A stretch of DNA of 64,000 nt, from IMG/VR virus record IMGVR_UViG_3300025425_000012. One strand, 5' to 3'. Position numbers and translations under genes: made by a program. This DNA is from a virus. The notes under the pieces were generated by a model, which worked only from the letters and a program-made list of their open reading frames with translations, did not search any database and was not told where the DNA came from. Positions 3,018-62,512 of this stretch are shown here, one piece after another (within the stretch, counting starts at the first letter, position 1; every line of letters begins with the position of its first letter).

Positions 3018-3275
3018 TCACCCCAATTTATACAGCAAGTGACCAACTTCGTCAGTAACTCTTTGTTTAAACTCTGGAAAGGATATAGTATCTTCACTTT
3101 TACAAAATTGTAGATTAAGAGGATGCTCAACACCATCAATATATGTAAATAGGAAAATATCATCATTGGGGAAACAACGCATAGAAACATTGTATGCTAC
3201 TTTGTTTATTGTTATACGCATGACTCTCCAATAAAAATAGGCCCGTTCTGTTGCAAGGTGGAGCCCATACCCCAT
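3018..3275 (-). CDS. hypothetical protein
   Basis: 85-aa ORF on the coding strand of the minus block. Confidence 0.3.
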   Translation of the reverse strand: MGYGLHLATERAYFYWRVMRITINKVAYNVSMRCFPNDDIFLFTYIDGVEHPLNLQFCKSEDTISFPEFKQRVTDEVGHLLYKLG

Positions 3276-3721
3276 GTCGTTACGCTGCTAGAGCGTAACC
3301 CATAGGTGCACTATTTTTGTTTGCATCTATAAAGTTTCTTGCGGTTACAGTCGCTTGCGCACTGGCTTCTAGCTTACTCTTTGATACCTGTCGATCCTAT
3401 TTCGACCCCATCATCTACCTACTAAGTTCATTCTTTATCGTTACTAAGCGCTTAGCATGAATATAACGAGTTATCGTAGTAGGTAGGTGGTGGAGTCGCT
3501 GGGTACTGCCCCCAGGTCCAGAATATCTCCAATTCACATAATTGAAGCGATGATTTTATTATACTTCGTTTCTTAGTAGCTTTTCTAAATCTTTTTCATG
3601 TGGCTCATACTCTACCCATAGATCAGGACCAGAGATTTCCCCATGTTGTGGAATGTTACGAGCAGCTATTACACCTGATAAAAAGGCGTGTTTTAGCATA
3701 CGTGCAATTAGCAGTGTCATG

Positions 3722-17047: not shown

Positions 17048-18115
17048 ATGGAATATTTTAACAAAACACAGACAGACTGGCGTATTTCTCAATGCTGTCA
17101 GTTTAATGATAAAGATTTGGCAAAACGCTATAATCTTGGTACTACTACTAAGACTTATGCTTTAAAAGACGGTGGTAAAGAGCGAGTACAACAAAAAGCT
17201 TTAGCTAACGTAGCTAAGCTAGAGGACATTATTACTAACTATTTTCCAACACAACCTCGTAACTTGCGTGCTTTTCGTATATCGTCTGAGCTATTTCCTT
17301 GTTATACTCTTGACTTTACTACTGATTGGTATAAAGAAATCTGGGAAGATCTTAGTGTTATACTGGCACGAACTGGTGAGCAAGCTAAAAAACACGAAAT
17401 CAGACTGAGTGTGCATCCAGGGCAGTTTACTGTTCTCGGATCAGACAAAGCTAATGTAGTAGAAAACTCAGTTGCAGACTTAGAATACCATGCACATTAT
17501 GGTAAGCTGATGAATATACCTGCCGAAGACTTTGTAATGAATATTCACTTACAAGGTTTGTATGGAGGTAAACATATTGATGGTATTAAACGCTTTGCTT
17601 CTAATTTTAGCTATTTATCAGACTATGCTCAGAAGTGTTTAGCAGTAGAAAACGAAGATAAGCCTAATGGTTATGACATTGAACATACTATAGAATTAGC
17701 ACAACGTATTCCTACACGATGCACTCTTGATACTCATCATTATGCTTGCCACCGTATGTTGCATACTGAAAAAGTTCATGAAAACGGTAAGATTGTAAAC
17801 CGTAAAATTCGTGATGTACAGCATATTACAGCTAATTCCGACTTTTTTAAAGAAGCAGTAAAAACTTGGAAAGGTAGACGACCTTTATTCCACAAGTCTC
17901 AGTCACATCATCCAGATAATTCAGAGTATTGGATGAAAGTCAACGCCCATAGTAACGTATTTTGGGACGAAGAACTTATGGCTAACCATGTACCTATGTT
18001 AGAATATGCAGACTTCGATATTGAAGCTAAACATAAAGAGATTGCTGTTGCAGGTTTTTATAGCTTTATTAAAGAAGAACAAAATATGAGCGGTGAAAAG
18101 ATTATATGTAAATGA
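17048..18115 (+). CDS. uvsE: UV damage endonuclease UvdE/UvsE
   Basis: FRISSELFPCYTLDF...EIRLSVHPGQFTVLGSDKANVVENSVADLEYHAHYGKLMNIPAEDFVMNIHLQGLYGGK...LAVENEDK...CTLDTHHY is co-linear with B. subtilis UvsE (YRFSSSIVP...LRTSFHPNQFTLFTSP...INIHIGGAYGNK...TLENDDKTYT...FDFHHF). Confidence 0.8.
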   Translation: MEYFNKTQTDWRISQCCQFNDKDLAKRYNLGTTTKTYALKDGGKERVQQKALANVAKLEDIITNYFPTQPRNLRAFRISSELFPCYTLDFTTDWYKEIWEDLSVILARTGEQAKKHEIRLSVHPGQFTVLGSDKANVVENSVADLEYHAHYGKLMNIPAEDFVMNIHLQGLYGGKHIDGIKRFASNFSYLSDYAQKCLAVENEDKPNGYDIEHTIELAQRIPTRCTLDTHHYACHRMLHTEKVHENGKIVNRKIRDVQHITANSDFFKEAVKTWKGRRPLFHKSQSHHPDNSEYWMKVNAHSNVFWDEELMANHVPMLEYADFDIEAKHKEIAVAGFYSFIKEEQNMSGEKIICK

Positions 18116-18837
18116 TAAATAAATACTTTTGTGAAGCAGTATCGTTATGCTCTCTAGCTTATGCTAAAAATAAAGTTATAGAAAGAGGACTATTTCATAA
18201 AGGTTACGTAGATATACATTTTATAGAAAAAAAACTATATAAAGGTTTTATAGCGTATAATCCTTCAGATAATAAGTGTTACTTAGCCCTAAGCGGCGTA
18301 CCTCCTGGAACTTTTCTACGATCTGGAGTACAATTATTAACTTGGAAGTTACAAAGCCATAACAATAGTAAAGTTTATAGCACTTTTTTATACCATGCAG
18401 ATAGCCTAAAAGATATACTAGATAGCTATATTGAGAAGTACCCTACTGCCTCATTTATGTACACAGGGCATTCTCTAGGCGCTGCTATATGTACCATTCT
18501 ATGTTTACACAAAGCTCCTACTATGTTAGTTACTTATGGGTCACCAAAAGTAGGAGATAAGCATTTTGTTAGAAACCTAGATAAGTTAAAAATAAATCAT
18601 TTCAGATTCGTAGCTTGTAATGATGATGTAACTACGCTACCTTTATGGTGTTATGGGTTAAAACATCATGGAGCTGAAATATACATTAATTTTTATGGAC
18701 ATATTAGAGATTCTACTAAGTTTCAAAAAAGTAAGGATAAGTTTAGAGCTAAGATCAGTATGAATAAGGCTCATTCTATATATAAAGCACATAATATAGA
18801 TAACTACTACTATAAAATACTCAAAGCATATAGATAG
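18112..18837 (+). CDS. class 3 lipase-like alpha/beta hydrolase
   Basis: Nucleophile elbow YTGHSLGAAICTIL (GHSLGxA). 241 aa. Confidence 0.5.
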   Translation: MINKYFCEAVSLCSLAYAKNKVIERGLFHKGYVDIHFIEKKLYKGFIAYNPSDNKCYLALSGVPPGTFLRSGVQLLTWKLQSHNNSKVYSTFLYHADSLKDILDSYIEKYPTASFMYTGHSLGAAICTILCLHKAPTMLVTYGSPKVGDKHFVRNLDKLKINHFRFVACNDDVTTLPLWCYGLKHHGAEIYINFYGHIRDSTKFQKSKDKFRAKISMNKAHSIYKAHNIDNYYYKILKAYR

Positions 18838-19481: not shown

Positions 19482-19770
19482 GAGTGAGCGCCTACTGCAA
19501 GCTACACAAAACCATAATAAATGGTTAAAATCAATGGGGGTTAGCGATGCTAATCCCCCTTGTACTTCTACAGAGCCTTATAAACTACCTAGACATAACG
19601 CAGTAGTTGTAAATAGTTCAGAATCAGTAGGTAACGGATCAAAAAAACCTAATTCAGTGTATACAGGAACTCAGAAACATCACGTAGGGCTACTATATAA
19701 CAAAGGTAACTATGGAGTTATATCTGCCGAGGACGCTAAAGACCCAGCAACAGGAAAGAGACGCACATGA
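19459..19770 (+). CDS. hypothetical protein
   Basis: 103-aa ORF, coupled. Confidence 0.3.
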   Translation: MPKNRRSKSERLLQATQNHNKWLKSMGVSDANPPCTSTEPYKLPRHNAVVVNSSESVGNGSKKPNSVYTGTQKHHVGLLYNKGNYGVISAEDAKDPATGKRRT

Positions 19771-20258
19771 TTGCTATTGATAAAATTGCATATAATGAGT
19801 ATACTAGAACCGTTGCATATAGCATGTCTAAGTATATTAGAACATATGACGATGCTTTTACTTTAGAGAGTGTACTCTGTGACTGGTCTACTACTAGGAG
19901 ATCTCATATAGGTGGTTGGTACAAGAACGGCCCTGGCATTAACCTAGCAATGACATATCTAACCAAAACTACAGGTGTTTATAAGTTTCATGAGTACCCC
20001 TCGTTTGCTAAGAGAGCTGACATTGGTAGCTTTTATTATAACAACTATAAGCATAAGGTCGTAGCAACTATTGCTCATGAGGTAGCTCATGCTTGGCAGT
20101 TCTATGATATGAAACATAATAAAATCAAAACAAAACCTCATGGTATCGAGTTTAAACGCTATTATAAAATTCTACGTGAGCAGTTTGTAAATCCTTACCT
20201 AGCAGATCAAGCCGTTCTATCTTATTTGTACTATAAAGATGTTGTTACTAGCAGCTAA
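19767..20258 (+). CDS. putative zinc metallopeptidase-like protein (HExxH)
   Basis: ATIAHEVAHAWQF contains an HExxH zincin motif. SprT/WLM-like size. Confidence 0.35.
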   Translation: MIAIDKIAYNEYTRTVAYSMSKYIRTYDDAFTLESVLCDWSTTRRSHIGGWYKNGPGINLAMTYLTKTTGVYKFHEYPSFAKRADIGSFYYNNYKHKVVATIAHEVAHAWQFYDMKHNKIKTKPHGIEFKRYYKILREQFVNPYLADQAVLSYLYYKDVVTSS

Positions 20259-20671: not shown

Positions 20672-21112
20672 ATGAAAGAAACATTCCCAAAAGCTTCTTT
20701 CATTGGCTTTGAGTCAATGCTAGAGAGTTTACGGTATACTAGTGAGCACGCTCACGATCATTACCCCCCACATAATGTGGTACAGACTAATGAGACAGAT
20801 TACTTTATCGAGATTGCAGTCGCTGGTTTTACTATGAGCGAGCTTACTGTAGAAGAAAAAAGTAGAACTCTTATTGTTTTAGGAAATCATGTATCAAAAG
20901 GTAGAACAGTTATCCACAGAGGTATCTCTACTAAAGGCTTTAAAAAAGAATTCAGATTGTCTGAATACGTTAAAGTCCTCGGAGCAAATCTAAAGGATGG
21001 AATCCTTGCAGTTCAGCTGAAGGTAGTAGTCCCCCAAGAAACGCGTCCTCGTAATATCATAATTGAAAACGAGGAAAATAACAATGGAACTAACACAAAA
21101 CGTCACTTATAA
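20672..21112 (+). CDS. small heat shock protein Hsp20 (alpha-crystallin domain, IbpA-like)
   Basis: YPPHNVVQTNETDYFIEIAVAGFTMSELTVEEKSRTLIVLG...LKDGILAVQLKVVVPQE aligns with IbpA [23 protein letters not shown]...LLHIDL. Confidence 0.8.
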   Translation: MKETFPKASFIGFESMLESLRYTSEHAHDHYPPHNVVQTNETDYFIEIAVAGFTMSELTVEEKSRTLIVLGNHVSKGRTVIHRGISTKGFKKEFRLSEYVKVLGANLKDGILAVQLKVVVPQETRPRNIIIENEENNNGTNTKRHL

Positions 21113-27632: not shown

Positions 27633-27707
27633 GCCTGTATAGCATTGTGGCAATGCAGCAGCCTTCAAAACTGACGTAAGTGGGTTCGACACCCTCTACA
27701 GGCACCA
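27633..27707 (+). tRNA. tRNA with anticodon TCA (reads UGA): putative opal-suppressor tRNA; amino-acid identity uncertain (Gly/Trp-like)
   Basis: Perfect 7-bp acceptor GCCTGTA/TACAGGC, D GCAT-TGTGGCA-ATGC, anticodon loop CTTCAAA (U33, A37), T GTGGG-TTCGACA-CCCTC, A-CCA. The anticodon stem is weak (3 bp: GCAGC/ACTGA). The anticodon arm is paralogous to the tRNA-Gly(UCC)-like gene at 28526. Confidence 0.45.
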
Positions 27708-30352: not shown

Positions 30353-30887
30353 CGATTTCGAGAGGGTTGGTAAAGATTTTTATCCAACACCTCTTAAAGC
30401 GGTAGCACCTCTTATACCTTATCTTCCTGAATCTTTTACTTTTATAGAGCCTTGTGCAGGTGATTTTAGACTTGTCAACCATATAGAAACTCTAGCACCT
30501 CTCAGTGAGTGTTATGAGGCTTATGATATTGATCCACAAGCAGATGAAGTTAGAGAATATGATGCGTTACAGCTTACCTCTGAGCATGTGTACGGCGCTG
30601 ACTTCATAATCACAAACCCTCCGTGGAGTAGAGGTAAAAAAGATGATTACCTACTCCATAACCTAATTACTCATTTTACTTCTTTAGCTCCTACGTGGTT
30701 GCTATTTGATGCAGACTGGGCACATACTGTTCAAGCTACTCCTTATTTAGTGCGTTGCGAAAAAATCGTATCTATAGGTAGAGTAAAATGGATAGAAGAT
30801 AGCCCTCATAGTGGTAAAGATAACGCTGCTTGGTACTATTTTGATACTAATTGGAATGAGGGGTATACTAAATTCTATGGTAGATAG
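30339..30887 (+). CDS. DNA N6-adenine methyltransferase (Dam-like, small)
   Basis: FYPTP (AdoMet-binding region) and DFIITNPPWS (NPPW motif IV). Confidence 0.6.
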   Translation: MGKRSDFERVGKDFYPTPLKAVAPLIPYLPESFTFIEPCAGDFRLVNHIETLAPLSECYEAYDIDPQADEVREYDALQLTSEHVYGADFIITNPPWSRGKKDDYLLHNLITHFTSLAPTWLLFDADWAHTVQATPYLVRCEKIVSIGRVKWIEDSPHSGKDNAAWYYFDTNWNEGYTKFYGR

Positions 30888-31128
30888 CATAATCCCTTGT
30901 ATTCATTGCAATAAAAAACCTGTACCACTATGCTATACAAAATTCTGGATAATTGAGCATTCTTGTAGAAAACAGCATATTAACTTTGGTGCAGCATCAG
31001 AAGAAAAAGTTGTTAACCTTTATAATATTTATATGACTAAAAGTAAGAAACAAAAAAGTCAAAATAAGCTATTATTTATAGCGCTTATAATACTAATAAT
31101 GGGTGTTGTGGGGTTATTAATATACTAA
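30877..31128 (+). CDS. small membrane protein with N-terminal Cys cluster
   Basis: MVDSIIPCIHCNKK... C-terminal TM FIALIILIMGVVGLLIY. Confidence 0.3.
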   Translation: MVDSIIPCIHCNKKPVPLCYTKFWIIEHSCRKQHINFGAASEEKVVNLYNIYMTKSKKQKSQNKLLFIALIILIMGVVGLLIY

Positions 31129-31134
31129 ATAATC

Positions 31135-31172
31135 TTGCTAATCGCTAATTTTTAATATATACTTTAAATATA
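31135..31172 (+). promoter_or_regulatory. sigma70-like promoter TTGCTA-17-TATACT
   Basis: aatcttgctaatcgctaatttttaatatatactttaaatataag, upstream of the NAD-salvage operon. Confidence 0.5.
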
Positions 31173-31217
31173 AGTTGATAGAAACTTATATTAACCGCTA
31201 AAAGGAGTTTTTAGCAC

Positions 31218-32255
31218 ATGCACGACACTGTAGTATTTATTGGCAGGTTCCAGCCTTTACATTTGGGACACGAAGCTGTTATTCGCGCAGCTTTAGAAAA
31301 GGGTAAACAAGTTATTGTAGCCGTTGGCTCTAGCTTTGCTTCCCGCACGACGCGAAACCCCTTTACATTTGAAGAACGCAAGCATATGCTTGAAACCGTG
31401 TTTTGTGATGAACCACGGTTAAAAGTCGTGCCTATTGCGGACTATCCTTACGACGATAATAAATGGGTTAATGCTGTTCGCAAGCAAGTAGCTAAGCATA
31501 CTAAGCCTACAGACTCTATTGCTCTTATTGGCTATGCAAAAGATGAAACATCCTACTATTTAAACATCTTTCGTGATTGGGATTCTATTAATGTTCCGGG
31601 ACATGAAAAACTCAACGCGACAGATCTTAGAGTTGAGTTATTTAGTATTGTTCTTGAATGGGAACTTTATAATAACGAGCTGTTATGTAATGGTAAAACT
31701 CTATCCAGTAGGATGATATCAATACTAGATAAACTAGTTGTGAAACCAGAATTTGTACAACTATCTAAAGAGTATGCGCTTATCCAAACCTACAAAGAAG
31801 CTTGGTCTGTTGCACCTTATGAGCCTACTTTTCATACAGTAGATGCTCTTGTTGTTCAGTCTGGTCATGTTCTTCTTGTTAAACGTAAAGCTGCTCCTGG
31901 CATAGGGTTGTGGGCGCTTCCTGGAGGGTTTCTAAACCCTAAAGAAACTACAAAAGACGGAGCACTTCGTGAGCTTCGAGAAGAAACTAAAATTAAAGTA
32001 TCTCAGACTATCTTAGAAAGCTCAATCAAAGGCAAGCAAGTCTTTGATGAACCTAACCGCTCTACTCGCGGTCGAACAATTACTACTGCTTTTCACTTTC
32101 AACTATCTGATAAGTTTGATTTCCCTAAAGTTAAAGGTTCAGATGATGCAGAAAAAGCTAAATGGGTTCCTTTCGAGCGTATTCGTTCACAGGATATGTT
32201 TGAAGATCACTATCACATTATTGACTACTTTCTTAATATCGCAGGTGATGCATGA
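31218..32255 (+). CDS. natV: bifunctional NMN adenylyltransferase / Nudix ADP-ribose pyrophosphatase (NadM-Nudix, phage NatV type)
   Basis: N-terminal VVFIGRFQPLHLGHEAVI (HxGH nucleotidyltransferase). C-terminal Nudix box GGFLNPKETTKDGALRELREETKI. Confidence 0.8.
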   Translation: MHDTVVFIGRFQPLHLGHEAVIRAALEKGKQVIVAVGSSFASRTTRNPFTFEERKHMLETVFCDEPRLKVVPIADYPYDDNKWVNAVRKQVAKHTKPTDSIALIGYAKDETSYYLNIFRDWDSINVPGHEKLNATDLRVELFSIVLEWELYNNELLCNGKTLSSRMISILDKLVVKPEFVQLSKEYALIQTYKEAWSVAPYEPTFHTVDALVVQSGHVLLVKRKAAPGIGLWALPGGFLNPKETTKDGALRELREETKIKVSQTILESSIKGKQVFDEPNRSTRGRTITTAFHFQLSDKFDFPKVKGSDDAEKAKWVPFERIRSQDMFEDHYHIIDYFLNIAGDA

Positions 32256-32450
32256 AACGTAGAGTAATAACATATAAGTACAAGCCAGGCTGGTGGGGTA
32301 TTATGGATTATAAAACCTATGACACTACAGAAGCTAAGGTTGATGCTTTTATTAAAGTCTTTACTAAAACATTACCAAAATACTACCACGTAACAGTAAT
32401 AACTTTAGACGGATAGACCGTCGAACAGAACAGCAAAAGGAGTTTTTGCA

Positions 32451-33956
32451 ATGAAAAATATTCTATCAGTACTAACCGCTATCCTACGAGTTGATGGCTA
32501 TAAGCCTTCCCAATGGGTACAAACACCTACTAACACTACGGGAATCAGTTCTTATATTGAGTCCCGTGGCGGAGCAGCAAAAAGTGTCTTCTTCGGCCCA
32601 CAAGCCTTTATTAAAGAGTATCTACTAGTACCTATTACAGTAAGCGATGTTAAGTTTGCAAAAGCTGTATTTGCGATTTATGGCGCACCCTTCAATGAAG
32701 AAGGTTGGATGACTATTGTAAACGAGTATGGCGGCTTTCTACCTCTTGAGATTGAGGCAGTACCAGAAGGTACTTATATGGAGACACGCAACGTACAGGT
32801 ACAGGTTACTGCTACTGATGATCGTCTAGCATGGTTGACCTCGTATGTTGAAACCGCGCTTCTACGAGGTGTATGGTATCCTTCTACCGTTGCTAGTGAG
32901 TCAAGAGAATACAAAGTTATGTTGTTAAAAGGTCTGTATGCAACCTCTGATATTCCTATAGATGTTCTACGTGATGTAGTAGTAAAGTTCTCGCTGCATG
33001 ACTTTGGTGCTCGGGGCGCTTCTTCTTCAGAAACAGCTGTATTAGGTGGTATGTCACACCTTGTTAACTTCTGGGGAACAGATACTGTTGAAGGACTTAT
33101 CGGAGCGTATAGCTTCTATAATGCTGATATTACGAGTGCAGATGCTCCACCAGTCGGTAGGACTGTTCCTGCCTCTGAGCATAGTGCTATCACTTCTTGG
33201 GGCCGTGCTAATGAAGCTGCTGCTTTTGAAAATATGATTGATCAGTTTAGTGAGCCAGGTTCTATCTATGCTTGCGTTTCTGATAGTTTTGATATTTACA
33301 ACGCAACTTCAAATATCTGGGGAACTCAACTAAAAGATAAGGTAATTGCTTCTGGGGGTACCCTAGTTGTACGCCCTGACTCAGGTGATCCACTTACTAT
33401 GCCTATCAAAGTACTTGAAATGTTAGCTGAAAAGTTTGGCTATACTGTAAATAGCAAAGGGTATAAGGTACTTGCAGTACGTAAGAGCGATGGAAGCCCT
33501 ATTGTTAAAGTAATTCAGGGGGATGGTCTAGATAAGAAATCACTTCCTATTCTTATTGCCAATATCATAAGTGCTGGTTTTAGTCTTGAAAACATTGCTT
33601 TTGGTATGGGCGGTGGTCTACTTCAAAATGTTAATCGTGACACCTTGAAATATGCAATGAAAGCTTCTGCAATCCGTGTAGGAGAAGGTGACTGGGTAGG
33701 TTTCTCTAAAGACCCTGTTACTGATCCAGGTAAAAAGTCTAAAGAAGGACGCCTTGGCCTTATCTATACTTGCGGTATTGGTAGCTGTAGCTTTAAGACT
33801 GTACCTAAGCATATTGCTGACGAAAAAGGCAAAAATGTTATGCGAGTCGTATATAGAAACGGTAAGCTGCTAGTAGATGATAACTTTGAGACTGTTCGCG
33901 CGCGCGCAGAGGTTCAAGAGATTGAGTTTACTAACGAGCCTGTAGAAAGATACTAA
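32451..33956 (+). CDS. nadV: nicotinamide phosphoribosyltransferase (NAMPT, phage NadV type)
   Basis: 501 aa, full-length NAMPT family. Conserved DGYKPSQW, SVFFGPQAF, GARGASS, VRPDSGDP and IQGDGL segments. Confidence 0.85.
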   Translation: MKNILSVLTAILRVDGYKPSQWVQTPTNTTGISSYIESRGGAAKSVFFGPQAFIKEYLLVPITVSDVKFAKAVFAIYGAPFNEEGWMTIVNEYGGFLPLEIEAVPEGTYMETRNVQVQVTATDDRLAWLTSYVETALLRGVWYPSTVASESREYKVMLLKGLYATSDIPIDVLRDVVVKFSLHDFGARGASSSETAVLGGMSHLVNFWGTDTVEGLIGAYSFYNADITSADAPPVGRTVPASEHSAITSWGRANEAAAFENMIDQFSEPGSIYACVSDSFDIYNATSNIWGTQLKDKVIASGGTLVVRPDSGDPLTMPIKVLEMLAEKFGYTVNSKGYKVLAVRKSDGSPIVKVIQGDGLDKKSLPILIANIISAGFSLENIAFGMGGGLLQNVNRDTLKYAMKASAIRVGEGDWVGFSKDPVTDPGKKSKEGRLGLIYTCGIGSCSFKTVPKHIADEKGKNVMRVVYRNGKLLVDDNFETVRARAEVQEIEFTNEPVERY

Positions 33957-33961
33957 ACGCT

Positions 33962-33998
33962 ATAGAGAGGGGCTAACGCTCCTCTCTATTTCTGTTTT
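33962..33998 (+). terminator. rho-independent terminator (ATAGAGAGG...CCTCTCTAT + T-rich)
   Basis: 9-bp perfect stem directly after the nadV stop, followed by TTCTGTTTT. Confidence 0.65.
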
Positions 33999-34001
33999 AT
34001 A

Positions 34002-34040
34002 TTGCTAATATTGTCAAACAGTGTTATATTAAATTAACAT
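34002..34040 (+). promoter_or_regulatory. sigma70-like promoter TTGCTA-17-TATATT
   Basis: tattgctaatattgtcaaacagtgttatattaaattaacat. Confidence 0.5.
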
Positions 34041-34054
34041 ATAAAGGAAATATT

Positions 34055-34468
34055 ATGCAAGAACTAATCCAAGAAGCAGGCTATCGTCTTACCGTAGATT
34101 CGTGGGAGAATGATGGTGACGCAAATTGTACCGTACACAAAACTTATAAAGATAGAACAAATGCTTATTCTATTTTCACGTTCTTTAATACAATAAAAGA
34201 ACAAGACTTAATGAATTCTGTAGACCAGCTTACTTTAAAGCACTGTCATATTGCTAGAAAAGAGCTTATGCTAATACTACCACAAGAAGCTTTAGAGGAG
34301 CCTACAATGACTGACGAAGATTTAGAAAAAGATACTTGCCTAATGTCGTGTATTCAAGATCTGCTATACGAGTTTGGCCTAACCTCTGAGTACTTTTCTA
34401 TTAGGTATATTGAAAAAGTAAGCTTACATTACTTCTCAGACCCTGTATATGCAGAGGTTATTACATAA
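34055..34468 (+). CDS. hypothetical protein
   Basis: 137-aa ORF with RBS aaaggaaatattATG. Confidence 0.35.
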   Translation: MQELIQEAGYRLTVDSWENDGDANCTVHKTYKDRTNAYSIFTFFNTIKEQDLMNSVDQLTLKHCHIARKELMLILPQEALEEPTMTDEDLEKDTCLMSCIQDLLYEFGLTSEYFSIRYIEKVSLHYFSDPVYAEVIT

Positions 34469-34480
34469 GAAAGATGTATT

Positions 34481-35152
34481 ATGCACTATATTGGAGACGT
34501 TCACGGTAATTTCAGTGCTTACAAACACCTACTTAGTACCCTACCTGAGAGTGTTCAGATAGGGGATATGGGTGTCGGCTTTGGTCGCTGGGATGAAGAT
34601 CCTTTAGAACAAGCACGTGTTGATATGCTTGAGGTAGCTCAAGGAGCTAATCATAAGTTTATTCGTGGTAATCACGATAATCCAGCTGTTTGCAAGTCTA
34701 TGAACTCGTATATTGCTGACGGTACTGTAGTAGGTAATACTATGCATATCGGCGGGGCACTTTCTATTGATGCTAACATGCGTACTGCTGCTTGGGATTA
34801 TTGGGAAGATGAAGAGCTTTCTTATGATGAACTTTTTAACCTAATTGATGTATATGAGAAGGTAAAACCTGAAATTATGGTTACTCATGAATGCCCAGAA
34901 AGTGTGGTTGGGCACCTTTTTAATTGGTATGCTAAAGAGCAATGGCCTTCTAGAACTAGGCAGGCTTTTGATTCTATGTTTGCTATTCATAAGCCTAAGA
35001 TTTGGGTTTTTGGTCACTGGCATTATAGCGTATTTAGCACACAATTAGGTACTACGTTTATTTGTCTGAACGAGCTGAGCACAATCGAAATCACAGATAC
35101 TTATATCAGTGATATTAAACCTTTTAACCAAGGATGGTTACTAAAACCATGA
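34481..35152 (+). CDS. metallophosphoesterase (calcineurin-like; ApaH / PP-lambda-like)
   Basis: GDVHGN (motif I), GDMGVGFGRW (II), RGNHDNP (III) and ...HWHY metal ligands. Confidence 0.6.
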   Translation: MHYIGDVHGNFSAYKHLLSTLPESVQIGDMGVGFGRWDEDPLEQARVDMLEVAQGANHKFIRGNHDNPAVCKSMNSYIADGTVVGNTMHIGGALSIDANMRTAAWDYWEDEELSYDELFNLIDVYEKVKPEIMVTHECPESVVGHLFNWYAKEQWPSRTRQAFDSMFAIHKPKIWVFGHWHYSVFSTQLGTTFICLNELSTIEITDTYISDIKPFNQGWLLKP

Positions 35153-35586
35153 AGATACGTTACGTAAATTCAGATCTAACTACCGCCCGTGAGCGTTTTA
35201 TCGCTCACGGGTGTAATGCTCAAGGAGTTATGGGTTCAGGAGTAGCTAAAGCTATTAGAGCAAAGTGGCCTAGAGCATATAAAGAGTACAATGAACGATA
35301 CAAGATTGCAGGCTTAGGTACAGGTGAAGTTATACCTGTGTTTTATGATGATAAGACTATCCTTAACTGTATCACCCAAGAACGGTATGGCCGAAGCGGT
35401 GAACAATATGTAAGCTACGAAGCTGTTCGATTATGTATGAAGCTTATTAATAATAACTTCTCTATTGATAGCCGTGTTGCTATGTCTAAGATCGGATCGT
35501 CTTTAGGCGGTGGAGATTGGTCAATTATCTCTGAGATTATCGAGGCAGAATCTACAAATTTTATACCCATTGTCTACGAAATATAG
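35134..35586 (+). CDS. macro-domain protein (ADP-ribose binding/processing)
   Basis: IAHGCNAQGVMGSGVAKAIRAKWP fits the macro-domain diphosphate-binding loop (H..N..G.MG.GIA). Confidence 0.45.
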   Translation: MVTKTMKIRYVNSDLTTARERFIAHGCNAQGVMGSGVAKAIRAKWPRAYKEYNERYKIAGLGTGEVIPVFYDDKTILNCITQERYGRSGEQYVSYEAVRLCMKLINNNFSIDSRVAMSKIGSSLGGGDWSIISEIIEAESTNFIPIVYEI

Positions 35587-35597
35587 AATGCTTTATC

Positions 35598-35635
35598 TTG
35601 CTTGATGCTGTTTCTTATGCTATATTTAATTGTAA
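35598..35635 (+). promoter_or_regulatory. sigma70-like promoter TTGCTT-17-TATATT
   Basis: atcttgcttgatgctgtttcttatgctatatttaattgtaatatagg. Confidence 0.4.
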
Positions 35636-35913
35636 TATAGGAGATAGTCTATGAAGATTATTGAGTACGGCGAAAAAATGCAATACCGTTGCTCAGGTAA
35701 TGGTAATGGTGGAAACGGTTGTAAGGCTCTTCTTGAGGTTGAGCGTTCTGACATGCGTTATCTTGATGGGATCAGTGGTGATTCTTGGGGGTAGTCGTGA
35801 TGCTTCGGTTTCCTTCAAATGTCCTTGTTGTAAACAGCTAACAGATATACCTATATCAAAATGGCCTCAAGGGGCATCTTCATCACTTACGCGCTCAACA
35901 TCACACTGGAGAA

Positions 35914-36195
35914 ATGACTTGCCAGACCCTGATGAGCGACGATAATTATAAACAAATAAGAAAGAAGATAATGAAAGGTTGGAGAACAATCAATCACAAT
36001 AACAAGCTATTTTGGTGGAGAGTATCTACTGATTTCGTACTAGTACGAAAACACAATGGGCCTGTGATTGTAAGAAAGACTCTGTATGATGTTACTGGTA
36101 TGAGTCCTGATGATAGAGAGAGAGCAGCATGGAAGGGATCTCCCTTACCCGCTATTACACCTTCTATGATTATTGGGTACATTGATGAAGCATAA
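35914..36195 (+). CDS. hypothetical protein
   Basis: 93-aa ORF. Confidence 0.3.
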   Translation: MTCQTLMSDDNYKQIRKKIMKGWRTINHNNKLFWWRVSTDFVLVRKHNGPVIVRKTLYDVTGMSPDDRERAAWKGSPLPAITPSMIIGYIDEA

Positions 36196-36577
36196 CATTC
36201 CGAGTTTTCTCAGTAAACCAGTTCTTGTTGGTAGTAGGACTGTGCCTTGTGCTATTAGTAGAGACTCTGATTATGACTATCTTTGTCTTAAGCCTTGGTA
36301 TATTTTTAATGTTAGTAACCGTTTACAAGCATTAGGTTATGAAAACGAATCTAAGTTTGCTGTACAAGACACTTGGTCTTATCCTACGAATCAGTTTACT
36401 TCGTATCGTTATAATTCTGAGCATAATGTTGATGTAAACTTAATTGTAGCTCACAGTCATAGCTTTTATACTAATTTTTTAAAAGCAGCTAGAGTATGCA
36501 CTGCCTTGAATATTAAAAGTAGAGATACTAGAGTTAAAGTACACCAACTTATTATATATAACAACAATACTTTTTAG
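36173..36577 (+). CDS. hypothetical protein
   Basis: 134-aa ORF. Confidence 0.3.
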   Translation: MGTLMKHNIPSFLSKPVLVGSRTVPCAISRDSDYDYLCLKPWYIFNVSNRLQALGYENESKFAVQDTWSYPTNQFTSYRYNSEHNVDVNLIVAHSHSFYTNFLKAARVCTALNIKSRDTRVKVHQLIIYNNNTF

Positions 36578-36607
36578 ACCTTACACCTAAAAAATTACAT
36601 TTTTAAT

Positions 36608-36645
36608 TTGCTAAACCGCTAAAATATGAGGTATATTATTATTAT
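36608..36645 (+). promoter_or_regulatory. sigma70-like promoter TTGCTA-18-TATATT
   Basis: ttaatttgctaaaccgctaaaatatgaggtatattattattat, immediately 5' of the ORF at 36646 (leaderless or short leader). Confidence 0.4.
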
Positions 36646-36840
36646 ATGTTCAAAGTTAAACACGAATATGTAGACAAAGCTCCCTCTGTTGAAGGCGGTA
36701 GCACAGCTTCTACAATAGTTGACAGCTTAGAGGAAGCAGAGGAACATTTTGCTCTCAAAGTTGGGACACAAGTGTTTGACAAACGAGTAATTACACTTCT
36801 AGATGCTAATGATAACATCTTAAAGCAGCAGATTGTATAG
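36646..36840 (+). CDS. hypothetical protein
   Basis: 64-aa ORF. Confidence 0.3.
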   Translation: MFKVKHEYVDKAPSVEGGSTASTIVDSLEEAEEHFALKVGTQVFDKRVITLLDANDNILKQQIV

Positions 36841-41895: not shown

Positions 41896-42249
41896 ATGCT
41901 GCCAGCTTTTAACAAACAAAGGTATATTATGAATAAGATTAGTATTAATGGTGTTACTTATAGCTCAACCAGTGGTGATATTTCAGTACAAGGTAATGTA
42001 TTATCAATTAGTGGTCAAGAAATCGAAGCAACAGGTATTGTTGAAATTCGAGTACTTGAAGGCTCTATTGGCGAGTTGACCTCTACTGCCTCTGTTAGCT
42101 GTAATGATGTTACAGGTAACGTCAACGCTAAGGGTAGCGTTAATTGTGAAAATGTTGATGGGAATGTTAAGGCTGGTGGTAGCGTTAATTGTGCTAATGT
42201 TAGTGGTGACGTCAAAGCTGGTGGTAGTATTAACCATAGAAAGAAATAA
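41896..42249 (+). CDS. beta-helix repeat protein, bactofilin-like (tentative)
   Basis: Tandem ~17-aa repeats VTGNVNAKGSVNCENVDGNVKAGGSVNCANVSGDVKAGGSIN. Confidence 0.3.
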   Translation: MLPAFNKQRYIMNKISINGVTYSSTSGDISVQGNVLSISGQEIEATGIVEIRVLEGSIGELTSTASVSCNDVTGNVNAKGSVNCENVDGNVKAGGSVNCANVSGDVKAGGSINHRKK

Positions 42250-42250
42250 T

Positions 42251-42622
42251 ATGATTGATGTACTGAATGCCGACGTTCTAATTATGCGTAAAGCTAAAGA
42301 TCCTTTGGCAAAAACTATGGTATTCCACCTTGCTGAAATACGCAAGATTGGTAAAAACGATAGCAACCGCGATACAACTATAGATGAAGCTGTACAATAT
42401 ATTAAAAAAGCTGTACAAAAACTAAAAGACAATACTCATGCTAACCCTATAGAGATTGAGGTTCTAACTAAGTATTTGCCTGTAATGGCTACTAAAGACG
42501 AAATTCTTGCTATTATCAACCCTATCCTTGCTTCTGGTGGAGGAAAAGGCGACGTTATGAAAGCAGTGAAAACTAAATTCGGCGTAAATGTTGATATGAA
42601 ACTTGTATCAACTTTGCTTTAA
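42251..42622 (+). CDS. GatB/YqeY-domain protein
   Basis: MIDVLNADVLIMRKAKD...LTKYLP...ASGGGKGDVMKAVKTKFGVNVDMKLVSTLL is co-linear with YqeY (..LKEAMKAKD..LEEYLP..MGKVMG.V..K..G.AD.K.V...V). The start is chosen at the internal Met. The longer listed ORF overlaps the previous gene. Confidence 0.5.
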   Translation: MIDVLNADVLIMRKAKDPLAKTMVFHLAEIRKIGKNDSNRDTTIDEAVQYIKKAVQKLKDNTHANPIEIEVLTKYLPVMATKDEILAIINPILASGGGKGDVMKAVKTKFGVNVDMKLVSTLL

Positions 42623-48492: not shown

Positions 48493-48567
48493 GCGTTGGT
48501 AGCTCAGTGGTAGAGCACTTGGTTGAAGCCCAGGGTGTCAGGAGTTCGATTCTCCTCCTTCGCACCA
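48493..48567 (+). tRNA. tRNA-Phe (anticodon GAA); acceptor with two U.U mismatches (4-69, 5-68)
   Basis: D GCTC-AGTGGTA-GAGC, stem CTTGG/CCAGG, loop TTGAAGC, T AGGAG-TTCGATT-CTCCT, A-CCA. Acceptor GCGTTGG/CCTTCGC. Confidence 0.55.
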
Positions 48568-48585
48568 AATATAGGTATAAAGCTA

Positions 48586-49124
48586 TGCACGAACCTAATC
48601 ACTTTACTTCTGCTAAGTATTTAGTATTCCTAGATATTGACGGTGTTTTTACCTCAAACAGAGTTGAGATAACCGAAAACACTGTAGGATTACTATGGTC
48701 TAAGTTTGATCCTATTGCTATGAATTTTATGAACCGTATTCACGATAGTCATGAAAAAGTTGAGTTTGTTTTAATCTCTACTTGGCGTGATGGAGTTCTG
48801 TTAAATGATGCACACGCAAACCTTTGGATTGTAACAGCTTTACGTAATGCTGGTTTTAGAGGCGATCTAGCTTATCCTCTGTGGAAGGTTAACCCTTATG
48901 AAGATGCTGAGCTGTATCAACTAAAACGTGCGCATGAAACTAAGCACTATCTAGATAACTTCGCCCCTTATCACAAAGACTTTATTATCTTTGATGATAC
49001 TGACTATGATTTCGAGGGAGTACTAGGTAAACGTCGTTTGATTAAGACTGATTCTAACGATGGGCTACTATTTAAACATATGAAAAACGCACTATCTATA
49101 ATGGGTACTTGGGATAAAAAATGA
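48586..49124 (+). CDS. HAD-like phosphatase
   Basis: YLVFLDIDGVFTSN (DxDGV motif I). The listed ORF starts inside tRNA-Phe, so the start is taken at the internal MHEPNH. Confidence 0.45.
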
Positions 49125-61834: not shown

Positions 61835-62047
61835 TTGGAGAAAGTAATGATTTTAGTAATTACGCACACCTCGCCAAAAACTATCTACGATCATAGAGGT
61901 AGACTAGAAGAAGAAAAAGGTGATATATATGTATCTCATGGTGTAGATATACACACAGGAAAAAATGTAGTATTGCCTTGTGATCTCTGGAAATATTTTA
62001 GTGTTAACTGCTTTCACCAGGATGGTGAATGGTATCTTAAAGGATGA
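61835..62047 (+). CDS. hypothetical protein
   Basis: 70-aa ORF. Confidence 0.3.
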   Translation: MEKVMILVITHTSPKTIYDHRGRLEEEKGDIYVSHGVDIHTGKNVVLPCDLWKYFSVNCFHQDGEWYLKG

Positions 62048-62050
62048 GTA

Positions 62051-62512
62051 ATGAGACAACTATTTTTAGACTGTGATGGGGTACTAGCAGACTTTGATAA
62101 AGGTTTTGAAGACCTTTTCGGGTGGAAACAGGACAGGACTAACCCTCGTGTTAGCCAAAAAGATATGTGGTATAAGATTAGAACTACTAACAAGTTCTTT
62201 GAGAACCTGGATCTGTTACCTGATGCACGCGAACTATATGAAGAAGTAAAGCACCTTCGTCCTATTATTCTTACAGGCTGTCCTTTTGGTGATTGGGCAC
62301 CTGTGCATAAGATGAAATGGCGAGATAAGCACTTTCCAGGAGTCCCTATGATTACTTGTATGGCTAAAGATAAGGTAGACTACGCGCAAGTAAATGATGT
62401 TCTTATTGATGACTATAGTAAGCATAGAGAAACTTGGCAGAACGGCGGTGGCATCTTTATCCACCATAAGAATACCAAAGATAGCCTTCAACAACTAAGT
62501 AATATCTGGTGA
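62051..62512 (+). CDS. HAD-superfamily 5'(3')-deoxyribonucleotidase-like protein
   Basis: MRQLFLDCDGVLADFDKGFEDLFG is the classic DxDGVLAD motif I of NT5C-type nucleotidases. Confidence 0.5.
   Translation: MRQLFLDCDGVLADFDKGFEDLFGWKQDRTNPRVSQKDMWYKIRTTNKFFENLDLLPDARELYEEVKHLRPIILTGCPFGDWAPVHKMKWRDKHFPGVPMITCMAKDKVDYAQVNDVLIDDYSKHRETWQNGGGIFIHHKNTKDSLQQLSNIW

Follow-up and report, generated by a model that had tools for sequence, protein, structure and literature searches.

We found that a 64,000-nt stretch of viral DNA (the window; IMG/VR record IMGVR_UViG_3300025425_000012) carries a NAD+ reconstitution pair of the known NARP2 type and, directly adjacent to it, a separately transcribed cassette that encodes an Adpp-type macro domain protein and a metallophosphoesterase (MPP). 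We tentatively favor the explanation that this second cassette recycles NAD+ breakdown products, though the case for it falls slightly short of even. Six genes on the + strand make up the two cassettes, in the 5' to 3' order natV, orf54, nadV, orf137, MPP and macro. A prior sequence-only reading had placed natV, nadV, a phosphoesterase and a macro gene at these positions, and open reading frames and domain matches confirm all four. The source genome is that of an uncultured phage of ~145–148 kb, with the cassettes inside its tRNA-rich accessory arm, and the host is probably an alphaproteobacterium. Megablast comparison of the region with GenBank phages returned no match and no cultured close relative. 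The MPP recurs identically in 17 contigs, and the same six-gene order was present in all four loci listed (ENA, Logan and JGI samples); because the layout recurs identically in these loci, the arrangement is not an assembly artefact.

The first cassette encodes the two NARP2 enzymes, which are predicted to rebuild NAD+ and to rescue the phage from NAD+-depleting defense. The natV gene (31218–32255, + strand) encodes a 345-aa protein in which a NadM-type NMN adenylyltransferase is joined to a Nudix ADP-ribose pyrophosphatase (Pfam CTP_transf_like, 6.9e-13, and NUDIX, 4.5e-19; phrog_395, 2.4e-79); its score of 397.2 bits against NCBIfam NF003786 is barely at the threshold of 397. Its translation shows a GRFQPLHLGH motif (HxGH) and the Nudix box REx2EE, and a Shine–Dalgarno sequence, AAGGAG, lies 9 nt upstream of its start. 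The nadV gene (32451–33956, + strand) encodes a 501-aa nicotinamide phosphoribosyltransferase, or NAMPT (Pfam NAMPT_N, 3.8e-16, and NAPRTase, 3.7e-52; phrog_448, 5.5e-140; 517 bits against NCBIfam NF006629, cutoff 405), that is 54% identical to roseophage NadV, 66–68% identical to NadV of IMG/VR relatives and 40% identical to NadV of a 244,834 bp IMG/VR genome (L111/L112). The two genes are 196 nt apart and are separated by orf54 (32252–32416, + strand), a 54-aa ORF whose first 4 nt are shared with the end of natV. It was called as a gene in 4/4 variant contigs; searches of Pfam and PHROG found no homologue, and jackhmmer returned only orf54 itself. Of the dereplicated groups of loci, 24/32 have natV no more than 10 kb from nadV. 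The domains, the NCBIfam scores and the linkage all fit the previous assignment of these genes to a NARP2-type pair with the Nudix domain fused to NMNAT, though the pair had been titled NadV then NatV and the actual order is natV followed by nadV. The NARP2 core itself is already known, with Vibrio phage KVP40 as its prototype (Lee et al. 2017; Osterman et al. 2024, bioRxiv 10.1101/2024.02.11.579819). Both enzymes here have the same domain architecture as in that system, are linked and are apparently co-transcribed. Unlike the described NARP2 loci, there is a 54-aa ORF between the genes, a macro/MPP cassette directly downstream and an uncultured phage as the carrier.

The sequence signals between the genes predict two separate transcription units, natV-orf54-nadV and orf137-MPP-macro, rather than one operon. 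A promoter-like site, P1 (31135–31163, + strand; TTGCTA-17-TATACT), precedes natV, and a strong intrinsic terminator (33962–33989, + strand) follows nadV, so that the two bracket the first unit. Six of the 12 bp in the terminator stem are GC pairs, the tail is T-rich, and the folding free energy is −21.6 kcal/mol (z −6.1; 0/200 shuffles equally stable), which bears out the earlier terminator call at 33962. Only 13 nt past it lies a second promoter-like site, P2 (34002–34030, + strand; TTGCTA-17-TATATT), with a TG before the −10 element (extended −10). With the terminator and P2 standing between nadV and orf137, the earlier claim that the operon continues past nadV is contradicted. The promoter function of both sites is a prediction. 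P1 matches the sigma-70-type consensus at only 9/12 positions, and the count of generic sigma-70-like sites shows no enrichment (33 found versus 27 expected), but the motif TTGCTA-N16-18-TATAHT, to which both sites belong, occurs in five copies, all on the + strand, where 0.43 are expected (0/100 shuffles reach 5). The dedicated promoter previously proposed at 31135 holds up as a member of an enriched phage motif and less well as a generic promoter. An Rfam search of positions 30800–36800 found no riboswitch or other RNA.

The macro gene (35149–35586, + strand) encodes a 145-aa protein of the Poa1p/Adpp type, or 150 aa if its start is at 35134. We used the ATG at 35149, which overlaps the MPP stop codon as ATGA, has AAGGA upstream and is also chosen by other gene callers. 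The macro domain that had been reported at the end of the gene row is confirmed by Pfam Macro (PF01661; 1.9e-7) and phrog_335 (5e-39). Its best PDB sequence matches are BT1257, SCO6735 and Poa1p, the last being its nearest functionally characterized relative. As comparisons, we used the NARP1-associated Adpps listed in Table S1 of the preprint by Osterman et al. (bioRxiv 10.64898/2026.01.28.702374). The alignment with most of these proteins spans the entire macro (29–34% identity to seven of them, E-values of 1e-12 to 1e-18), although the macro's matches to the biochemically tested Adpp of Vibrio phage Gary are weak and local, at only ~20 bits. It shares with the Adpps the motifs HxxN, MGxG(I/V)A, Q..YG and IGxxLxGGDW. 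Against an Adpp HMM it scores 98.7 bits, compared to 43 bits for AdfM, the DarG2-like protein of phage PhiKZ. In a MAFFT alignment that includes PhiKZ gp104, the active-site Asn (N28) is conserved, and Gln82 of the macro, a Gln in all Adpps, occupies the column of the catalytic Lys of DarG2 and AdfM (K80 in T. aquaticus DarG2 and K78 in PhiKZ AdfM). The macro is thus most likely an Adpp/Poa1p-type protein, with a predicted ADP-ribose-1''-phosphate (ADPR-1''P) phosphatase activity.

Adpps linked to NARP1 have been shown experimentally to dephosphorylate ADPR-1''P and to extend NARP1 against aRES (bioRxiv 10.64898/2026.01.28.702374). Like the NARP1-AP system (Adps-Adpp-Namat), the region studied here has a macro protein of the Poa1p-like family of Adpp adjoining a phage NAD+ reconstitution pathway. 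Unlike in NARP1-AP, the partner pathway is NARP2, and the macro, with two genes in between, belongs to another transcription unit. The preprint defines an Adpp by its location within two genes of an Adps and Namat pair; the neighbors of the macro are instead natV/nadV, orf137 and the MPP, and local tblastn and Pfam scans of the examined part of the genome, including 10-kb flanks, found no homologues of Adps or Namat. NARP2 also differs from NARP1 in needing no ADPR substrate. According to published data, NARP2 by itself is enough to cancel aRES, so that the macro is dispensable for this purpose.

The MPP gene (34481–35152, + strand) encodes a 223-aa binuclear metallophosphoesterase of the calcineurin-like superfamily (Pfam Metallophos, 1.3e-7; phrog_1649, 4.5e-26). 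It has the five metal-binding motifs D-x-H, G-D, G-N-H, H and G-H-x-H in an alpha/beta sandwich, with all metal ligands conserved and a confident structure model, and Dbr1, an RNA phosphodiesterase, is among its best fold matches. It therefore looks like an active enzyme of the phosphodiesterase branch, and the overlap with the macro start suggests translational coupling. Of the former labels, calcineurin-like is supported by motifs and fold, but we rejected ApaH-like: the PPP signatures (GDxxDRG/GNHE) together with a match to the ApaH model were not found, and the likeness to ApaH/PPP phosphatases is limited to the calcineurin-like fold and the dinuclear metal motifs. The remaining gene of the second cassette, orf137 (34055–34468, + strand), belongs to PHROG 2290, which has an invariant SWENDGD motif and no known fold. 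We considered its identification as aRad1 and rejected it on size, aRad1 being ~70 aa long, and because the preprint's supplementary files lack the SWENDGD motif.

Our favored explanation takes the two cassettes as adjacent units with separate transcription. In the first (P1, natV, orf54, nadV, terminator), NadV-NadM nicotinamide salvage would proceed by NadV converting nicotinamide and PRPP to NMN, and by the NMNAT domain of NatV converting NMN and ATP to NAD+. The second (P2, orf137, MPP, macro, followed by small ORFs) would be an accessory unit whose substrate, ADPR-1''P, could be a product of RES-type NAD+ phosphorolysis or of the NAD+-dependent reaction that strips 2'-phosphates from RNA. 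The macro would convert ADPR-1''P to ADPR, and the Nudix domain of NatV would cleave ADPR to AMP and ribose-5-phosphate, so that carbon and phosphate would flow back into the PRPP on which NARP2 draws and a possibly toxic dead-end metabolite would be cleared at the same time. Our best guess is that the MPP would open a cyclic or internal phosphodiester before the macro step, either ADPR 1'',2''-cyclic phosphate or RNA 2',3'-cyclic ends. The enzymatic activities in this phage, the passage of ADPR to the Nudix domain and the roles of the MPP and orf137 are inferences. The chemistry is coherent because the Adpp family removes the 1''-phosphate and NatV carries a Nudix domain, which makes cassette 2 a plausible ADPR-recycling neighbor of NARP2. 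In this respect the ADP-ribose/NAD+ recycling unit proposed by the sequence-only reading remains plausible; that it would form one operon does not hold. If the macro does serve NARP2, then ADPR-1''P clearance in phages would accompany not only ADPR-based NAD+ rebuilding (NARP1-AP) but also the PRPP-based kind, and ADPR-1''P build-up or PRPP drain would be costly in itself. A bolder version, which we consider quite improbable, would turn orf137-MPP-macro into an upgrade of NARP2 devoted to clearing ADPR derivatives: ADPR>p and possibly cADPR-type signals would be opened by the MPP, the macro would take off the 1''-phosphate, the Nudix domain would feed ribose-5-phosphate back to PRPP, and the PHROG 2290 protein would act as a nucleotide sponge or as a new inhibitor of NADases. 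NAD+ rebuilding would then sustain itself whichever way NAD+ is cleaved.

The conservation of these neighborhoods bears on whether the adjacency has a meaning at all. It is possible, though somewhat unlikely, that natV-nadV, orf137, MPP and macro are independent accessory or anti-defense genes that shuffle within a hypervariable, tRNA-rich and HNH-rich arm, in which case their juxtaposition would be due to chance. The terminator and P2, which make separate transcription units, are consistent with this. So is the comparison with relatives: in every relative examined, the order and spacing of natV, nadV, orf137, MPP and macro differ. The distance of the macro from natV/nadV is 8–28 kb in the closest relatives and 21–97 kb in others; on contig 3300016476_000584, for example, 8.5 kb separate natV from the macro upstream of it and ~9.4 kb separate nadV from the MPP downstream, and one locus (L043) has the macro inside a tRNA array. 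Within 10 kb, the macro was found in only 1/47 nadV-anchored loci, and a true NAMPT in ~5% of macro-anchored loci, which is close to expectation because the base rate of NadV in large phages is high (22–33%; PMC9503650). The synteny that the sequence-only reading had expected between the macro and nadV/natV in related phages thus largely failed to appear. For the MPP, loci were gathered from IMG/VR by profile search. Neither gene chosen as a control for the effect of sharing one accessory arm was usable (a methyltransferase upstream of natV, with nadV in 0/80 loci, mostly short contigs of other phage types, and an NT5C-like gene, with 8 loci only), and enrichment was therefore judged by ranking neighbor families. 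The MPP is within 10 kb of nadV in ~12–22% of loci (7/32 dereplicated groups; 10/80 MPP-anchored loci) and, core genes aside, shares first place among nadV neighbors in loci whose NadV identities span 42–68%, which argues against chance, although in cultured relatives it lies 15–88 kb from nadV. The neighbors of the macro family within 4 kb include NadV/Namat in 7/73 groups and NADAR in 5/73, the recurrent NAD+/ADPR-related families, with unannotated families equally frequent; otherwise its neighborhoods are mixed, with thymidylate synthase (8/73), AAA ATPases and DnaJ. Harder to explain by chance are the few phages in which the macro directly adjoins NARP2: Rhizobium phage RHph_I1_18, where natV, nadV and macro overlap, and IMG/VR locus L062, where NADAR and macro are embedded in the order natV-NADAR-macro-orf71-nadV. 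A fused NadV and macro tblastn query of GenBank returned 23 records that mix Namat and NAMPT, and its E-value shift distorts union and intersection counts; we used only RHph_I1_18 from these records because it is the single clear NARP2 case. The functional tie of the same macro family to NARP1 also argues against chance. A further recurrence is locus L026, whose macro is 3.5 kb from nadV. ADPR-processing genes therefore occur inside or beside NARP2 in a few unrelated phages, and their recurrence is sporadic and the link loose.

The neighborhoods of the MPP family hint at another possible route, RNA repair. Here the MPP would heal RNA 2',3'-cyclic ends or open ADP-ribose 1'',2''-cyclic phosphate. 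Like Poa1p in the tRNA splicing of yeast, the macro would take off the 1''-phosphate, and NARP2 would refill the NAD+ spent by 2'-phosphotransferase-type repair and by a phage NAD+-dependent DNA ligase. In the MPP family, neighbors such as Rnl1 RNA ligase, AAA_33/AAA_28 P-loop kinases and PTH2 are roughly as frequent as nadV: in several loci a T4-type Rnl1 lies directly upstream of the MPP (10–381 nt), or an AAA_33 kinase within ~1 kb, or PTH2 or Acb1-like 2H genes nearby. Locus L026 has the order natV-nadV-x-RNA ligase-HD-AAA_33-macro. The Dbr1 and Poa1p similarities point the same way, as do the tRNA/tmRNA arm in the window, with its HAD_SAK_2 RNA-repair phosphatase, and a LigA-type ligase gene just beyond the window edge. 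In the yeast by-product pathway, Tpt1 produces Appr>p, Cpd1 converts it to Appr-1''p and Poa1p yields ADPR; the phage likewise couples a Poa1p-like macro to a phosphodiesterase gene in an RNA/tRNA-centered region, but its phosphodiesterase is a metallophosphoesterase and not a 2H enzyme, and no Tpt1/KptA or RNA ligase was found in the sequence covered. Split Pnkp-type RNA end healing is known from T4 PseT/Rnl1 and from Clostridium thermocellum Pnkp, which has an MPP phosphoesterase module. The MPP family resembles such systems by adjoining Rnl1 and an AAA_33 kinase in several phages, but here the MPP has nadV, orf137 and macro as its neighbors, and local tblastn found no homologue in the window of the relatives' RNA ligase, AAA_33/AAA_28 kinase, PTH2 or NADAR. 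Pfam scans of the larger window ORFs and the 10-kb flanks, a range that leaves up to ~65 kb of the genome outside, showed no KptA/Tpt1, and no RNA-ligase domain was present among the Pfam-annotated gene calls of those flanks. The macro-MPP pair is also rare (4/80 macro-anchored and 2/80 MPP-anchored loci), and we consider the RNA-repair route unlikely. It is highly improbable that the macro is an orphan DarG2/AdfM-like antitoxin, stripping DarT-type ADP-ribose from phage DNA and unrelated to NAD+ salvage. The phage macro protein AdfM is a validated anti-DarT2 factor (PMC13309987), and our macro falls in the same broad clade and shares its active-site Asn. It matches the PADLOC DarG model (52.7 bits) and NCBIfam antitoxin_DarG (37.6 bits) in the macro part only, as well as DarG in the PDB (5m3i; E 7.6e-5), and a NADAR, the DarG1-type domain, lies beside it in L062. 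Against these stand Gln82 in place of the catalytic Lys, an Adpp HMM score more than twice that of AdfM, the lack of a DarT-binding domain and scores below the family cutoffs, the NCBIfam score being far under its cutoff of 250. Finally, that the MPP, the macro or both degrade ADPR-derived immune signals (gcADPR, His-ADPR) and so counter Thoeris signaling, an extension suggested by the sequence-only reading, is extremely unlikely in our judgment; the wider idea of phage Macro, NADAR and Nudix domains processing soluble ADPr derivatives has already been proposed (PMC9503650).

The comparisons also yielded three leads beyond the recycling explanation that we favor. One is the L062 operon, in which an insertion of NADAR and macro separates natV from nadV. 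Another is the MPP family itself, ~870 well-folded phage metallophosphodiesterases whose neighbors alternate between NAD+ salvage and RNA-repair genes. The third is PHROG 2290, a small family that abuts natV/nadV in three relatives.

Six closely spaced open reading frames lie on the + strand between 31135 and 35586: natV (31218-32255, 345 aa), orf54 (32252-32416, 54 aa), nadV (32451-33956, 501 aa), orf137 (34055-34468, 137 aa), a metallophosphoesterase gene, MPP (34481-35152, 223 aa), and a macro-domain gene, macro (35134 or 35149-35586, 150 or 145 aa). Their order is identical in all four places shown, among 17 metagenomic contigs from four samples that carry an identical MPP. Judged by profile matches, the domain assignments of four genes are secure: natV matches CTP_transf_like and NUDIX, nadV matches NAMPT_N and NAPRTase, MPP matches Metallophos and phrog_1649, and macro matches Macro and phrog_335. 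Both natV (397.2 bits against the NCBIfam equivalog for bifunctional NMN adenylyltransferase/Nudix, cutoff 397) and nadV (517 bits against NF006629, cutoff 405) match at equivalog level. These matches bear out the sequence-only reading of a NARP2-type pair, and the core reads as an ordinary NARP2 pathway.

That reading had a single operon continuing past nadV. We found a strong terminator at 33962-33989 (dG -21.6 kcal/mol, z -6.1), as had been proposed, and a promoter-like motif at 34002 that starts 13 nt beyond it, which together indicate two units rather than one. The predicted unit 1 comprises the promoter-like site at 31135, natV, orf54, nadV and the terminator; the predicted unit 2 comprises the site at 34002, orf137, MPP and macro, with no terminator between macro and the next small ORFs. 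The dedicated promoter placed at 31135 is just a 9/12 match to the sigma-70 consensus, and generic sigma-70 matches are not enriched in the window; the site nevertheless belongs to a motif that is enriched, TTGCTA-N16-18-TATAHT, found in five copies, all on the + strand (21493, 31135, 34002, 36608 and 46786), versus 0.43 expected. This motif probably represents a promoter class serving the accessory arm. In unit 2, the ATG at 35149, which other gene callers also choose as the start of macro, overlaps the MPP stop codon as ATGA and has AAGGA upstream.

Among solved structures, the best matches of macro were BT1257 (PDB 2fg1, E 7.5e-11), SCO6735 (5e3b, E 8.2e-9), yeast Poa1p (6lfu, E about 1e-6) and DarG (5m3i, E 7.6e-5). 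A Poa1p-like macro protein, Adpp, is present in 15% of NARP1 operons, where it converts ADPR-1''P, the product of the RES-domain defence aRES, to ADPR and thereby restores NARP1 activity (10.64898/2026.01.28.702374, January 2026). We compared macro with eight Adpps from Table S1 of that preprint and obtained full-length alignments with seven (29-34% identity, E 1e-12 to 1e-18); the match to the biochemically tested Gary Adpp was weak. A profile HMM built from the eight scored macro at 98.7 bits, versus 43 bits for AdfM, the DarG2-like anti-DarT2 macro protein of PhiKZ. The active-site Asn is shared with DarG2 and AdfM, but the column of their catalytic Lys (K80/K78; PMC13309987) holds Gln82 in macro and Gln in every Adpp. 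The HMM score, the alignments and Gln82 make an Adpp/Poa1p-type enzyme the most plausible identity of macro. A DarG-type DNA de-ADP-ribosylase is disfavoured by the same score and residue; DarG models match the protein through the common fold.

The neighbouring phosphoesterase had been labelled ApaH-like. Neither motif II nor motif III follows the PPP type found in ApaH/PPP phosphatases, and no ApaH model matched the protein, so we rejected the label. All dinuclear-site residues are invariant across the family, which has about 870 metagenomic homologues, none with an informative name. The AlphaFold model is confident (pLDDT 94), and its nearest Foldseek neighbours are Dbr1, LpxH, Rv0805 and GpdQ. 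MPP is accordingly described here as a predicted phosphodiesterase-branch metallophosphoesterase.

We examined synteny by fetching 10-kb flanks around IMG/VR homologues and screening them locally. Around macro, a true NAMPT gene occurred within 10 kb in 4 of 80 loci (L014, L026, L043 and L062) and MPP in four; a Namat-like gene lay within a few kb in five, at no more than about 1 kb in four of these, which is the NARP1-AP pattern. An Adpp-family macro occurs in both settings, beside NARP2 here and with NARP1 there (10.64898/2026.01.28.702374). Around MPP, nadV was found within 10 kb in 10 of 80 loci and macro in two. The 47 nadV-anchored loci, dereplicated to 32 groups, contained natV in 24 groups, MPP in seven, and, likewise in seven, a second MPP family homologous to window 60162-60710 (52% identity), making the two MPP families the joint commonest nadV neighbours once the core genes are set aside. 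L082 and similar relatives have this second family about 1.8 kb beyond nadV on its downstream side. Medium-sized and jumbo phages carry NadV at a published rate of 22-33% (PMC9503650); against this base rate, which is not lineage-matched, the macro-NAMPT figure of 5% is near expectation and the MPP-nadV figures of 12-22% are a few-fold above it.

Several arrangements are much tighter. Rhizobium phage RHph_I1_18 has natV-nadV-macro with overlapping genes, and MPP lies about 0.75 kb downstream of nadV in L142. An IMG/VR contig (L062, 7404-11138) carries a five-gene operon, natV-NADAR-macro-orf71-nadV, with overlapping starts and stops, which places two predicted ADP-ribose-processing domains, NADAR and macro, inside NARP2. 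Contig 3300016476_000584, from among the closest relatives, is looser: macro, an 8.5-kb gap, orf137-natV-nadV, a gap of about 9.4 kb, then MPP. In other contigs with both macro and nadV the two are 21-97 kb apart, and MPP and nadV are separated by 15-88 kb in cultured phages. The proposed co-occurrence with nadV/natV is loose: RHph_I1_18, L062 and L142 show it, but the closest relatives have other gene orders, and just 1 of the 47 nadV loci has macro inside 10 kb. Synteny in related phages, on which the sequence-only reading depended, is largely lacking.

The chemistry of unit 2 would form a coherent extension of NARP2. Starting from ADPR-1''P, macro would yield ADPR, which the Nudix domain of NatV would cleave to AMP and ribose-5-P; PRPP would then come from host Prs, NMN from NadV and NAD+ from NatV. 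The ADPR/NAD+ recycling unit of the sequence-only reading keeps its chemistry, given an Adpp-like macro, but loses its unity, as the genes form separate transcription units and are rearranged in the closest relatives. The case for coupling is circumstantial: macro is homologous to the Adpp family, a few independent loci have the genes tightly juxtaposed, and MPP is moderately associated with nadV. The points on the other side are the separate unit, the rearrangement, and the finding that NARP2 alone already cancels aRES (10.64898/2026.01.28.702374). We put functional cooperation of unit 2 with NARP2 at slightly under an even chance, with macro a credible partner and MPP an uncertain one. Mere juxtaposition of the two units comes next and is less likely. 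An anti-DarT role, against which Gln82 speaks, or a degradation of ADPR-derived immune signals, is the least probable. That soluble ADPr derivatives, including ADPr-1''P, are processed by phage proteins of the Macro, NADAR, SLOG and Nudix types has been proposed before (Iyer et al. 2022, PMC9503650).

The wider neighbours suggest another role, in which MPP, and perhaps macro, would serve RNA end-healing and by-product clearing. On the same strand within 3.5 kb of MPP (69 groups), we counted an AAA_33 kinase in nine groups, the second MPP family in eight, topoisomerase/gyrase subunit A in seven, and an AAA_28 kinase, nadV and PTH2 in six each. The T4-type RNA ligase Rnl1 occurred in five, directly upstream by 10-381 nt in four loci. 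An Acb1-like 2H gene precedes MPP in L136 and L154, and L026 (4129-10450) reads natV-nadV-(221 aa)-RNA ligase (PF09414)-HD_4-AAA_33 kinase-macro, with NAD+ salvage, an RNA-repair-like trio and macro all in one row. However, a local tblastn search of the window with the relatives' RNA ligase, kinase, PTH2 and NADAR genes gave no homologue, and neither the larger window ORFs, scanned with Pfam, nor the Pfam-annotated gene calls of the 10-kb flanks yielded a KptA or RNA-ligase domain. An RNA-repair-centred role is improbable, less likely than mere juxtaposition, and cooperation with NARP2 remains our preferred reading.

Other features of these neighbourhoods were recorded. In L145, L157, L184, L198 and L181, and in L135, L136 and L154, Rnl1 is often directly upstream of MPP or an AAA_33 kinase adjoins it; T4-like and jumbo contigs share a conserved string, NAMPT..PTH2..(Acb1-like 2H)..MPP..gyrB. 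Neighbours of the macro family at distances up to 4 kb (73 groups) are thymidylate synthase in eight groups, NadV/Namat in seven and NADAR in five, with recurring AAA ATPases and DnaJ; several families without a Pfam match are as frequent as the annotated ones.

NARP2 is already known, as is Adpp in association with NARP1, and NADAR beside NadM and NadV was pointed out earlier (Iyer et al. 2022, PMC9503650). Among the papers searched, 'NARP2' and 'macro domain' occurred together only in the aRES preprint (10.64898/2026.01.28.702374), which ties the macro protein to NARP1 only; thus a putative Adpp-type macro beside NARP2, apparently translationally coupled to MPP, is new as a variation on known systems.

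The gene orf137 belongs to PHROG 2290, a family of unknown function for which a set of 1.84 billion proteins contains 31 representatives. The SWENDGD motif is invariant in it, and it matches no known fold. Its position beside natV/nadV differs: 34055-34468 in the window, but immediately upstream of natV in L043 (18386-18817) or of nadV in L106 (9522-9944) and L087 (9807-9929), all relatives. Family-wide the link is weak: of 22 loci, 4 have nadV inside 10 kb. A homologue also occurs in a 206,713-bp IMG/VR genome (L308). The MPP family is present in the cultured Sinorhizobium phage phiN3 (GenBank), a possible experimental model.

The phage has a genome of about 145-148 kb, and the window, which carries 29 tRNA genes and one tmRNA, falls in its accessory arm. 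The tmRNA (3236-3591, - strand; ARAGORN tag ANKNSAPMGYALAA) is of the permuted alphaproteobacterial type (Rfam RF01849, 114 bits; RF04321, 108 bits), which points to an alphaproteobacterial host. The closest NadV proteins among cultured phages are from roseobacter and rhizobial phages (43-54% identity); a nucleotide-level search of GenBank phages gave no match. Just beyond the left end of the window, a gene on this phage's contig encodes a NAD+-dependent, LigA-type DNA ligase (L329, 18990-20753), which gives the phage an NAD+ demand of its own. A ribosomal protein S21 homologue (L329, 3564-3905) is encoded inside the window, no more than a few kb from that end. The tRNA genes are spread over 22449-53883 (+), interspersed with small ORFs and HNH genes; three are tRNA-Trp, and one call with a TCA anticodon, given as SeC (27633-27707), could represent an opal suppressor. 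We grouped a HAD_SAK_2 'Swiss-army-knife' RNA-repair phosphatase domain (48507-49124), a DUF2828/DUF7788/vWA protein (54426-55967) and a YqeY-like protein (42104-42622) as RNA-centred accessory genes. Other genes encode UvdE (17048-18115), a class 3 lipase (18112-18837), a SprT-like protein (19767-20258) and Hsp20 (20672-21112). A second nucleotide/ADPr-flavoured cluster occupies the + strand at 59245-62512, with a YAcAr SLOG-domain protein (PF10686, 8.7e-16; 59245-59652), the second metallophosphoesterase (Metallophos_2; 60162-60710) and an NT5C-like nucleotidase (62051-62512).
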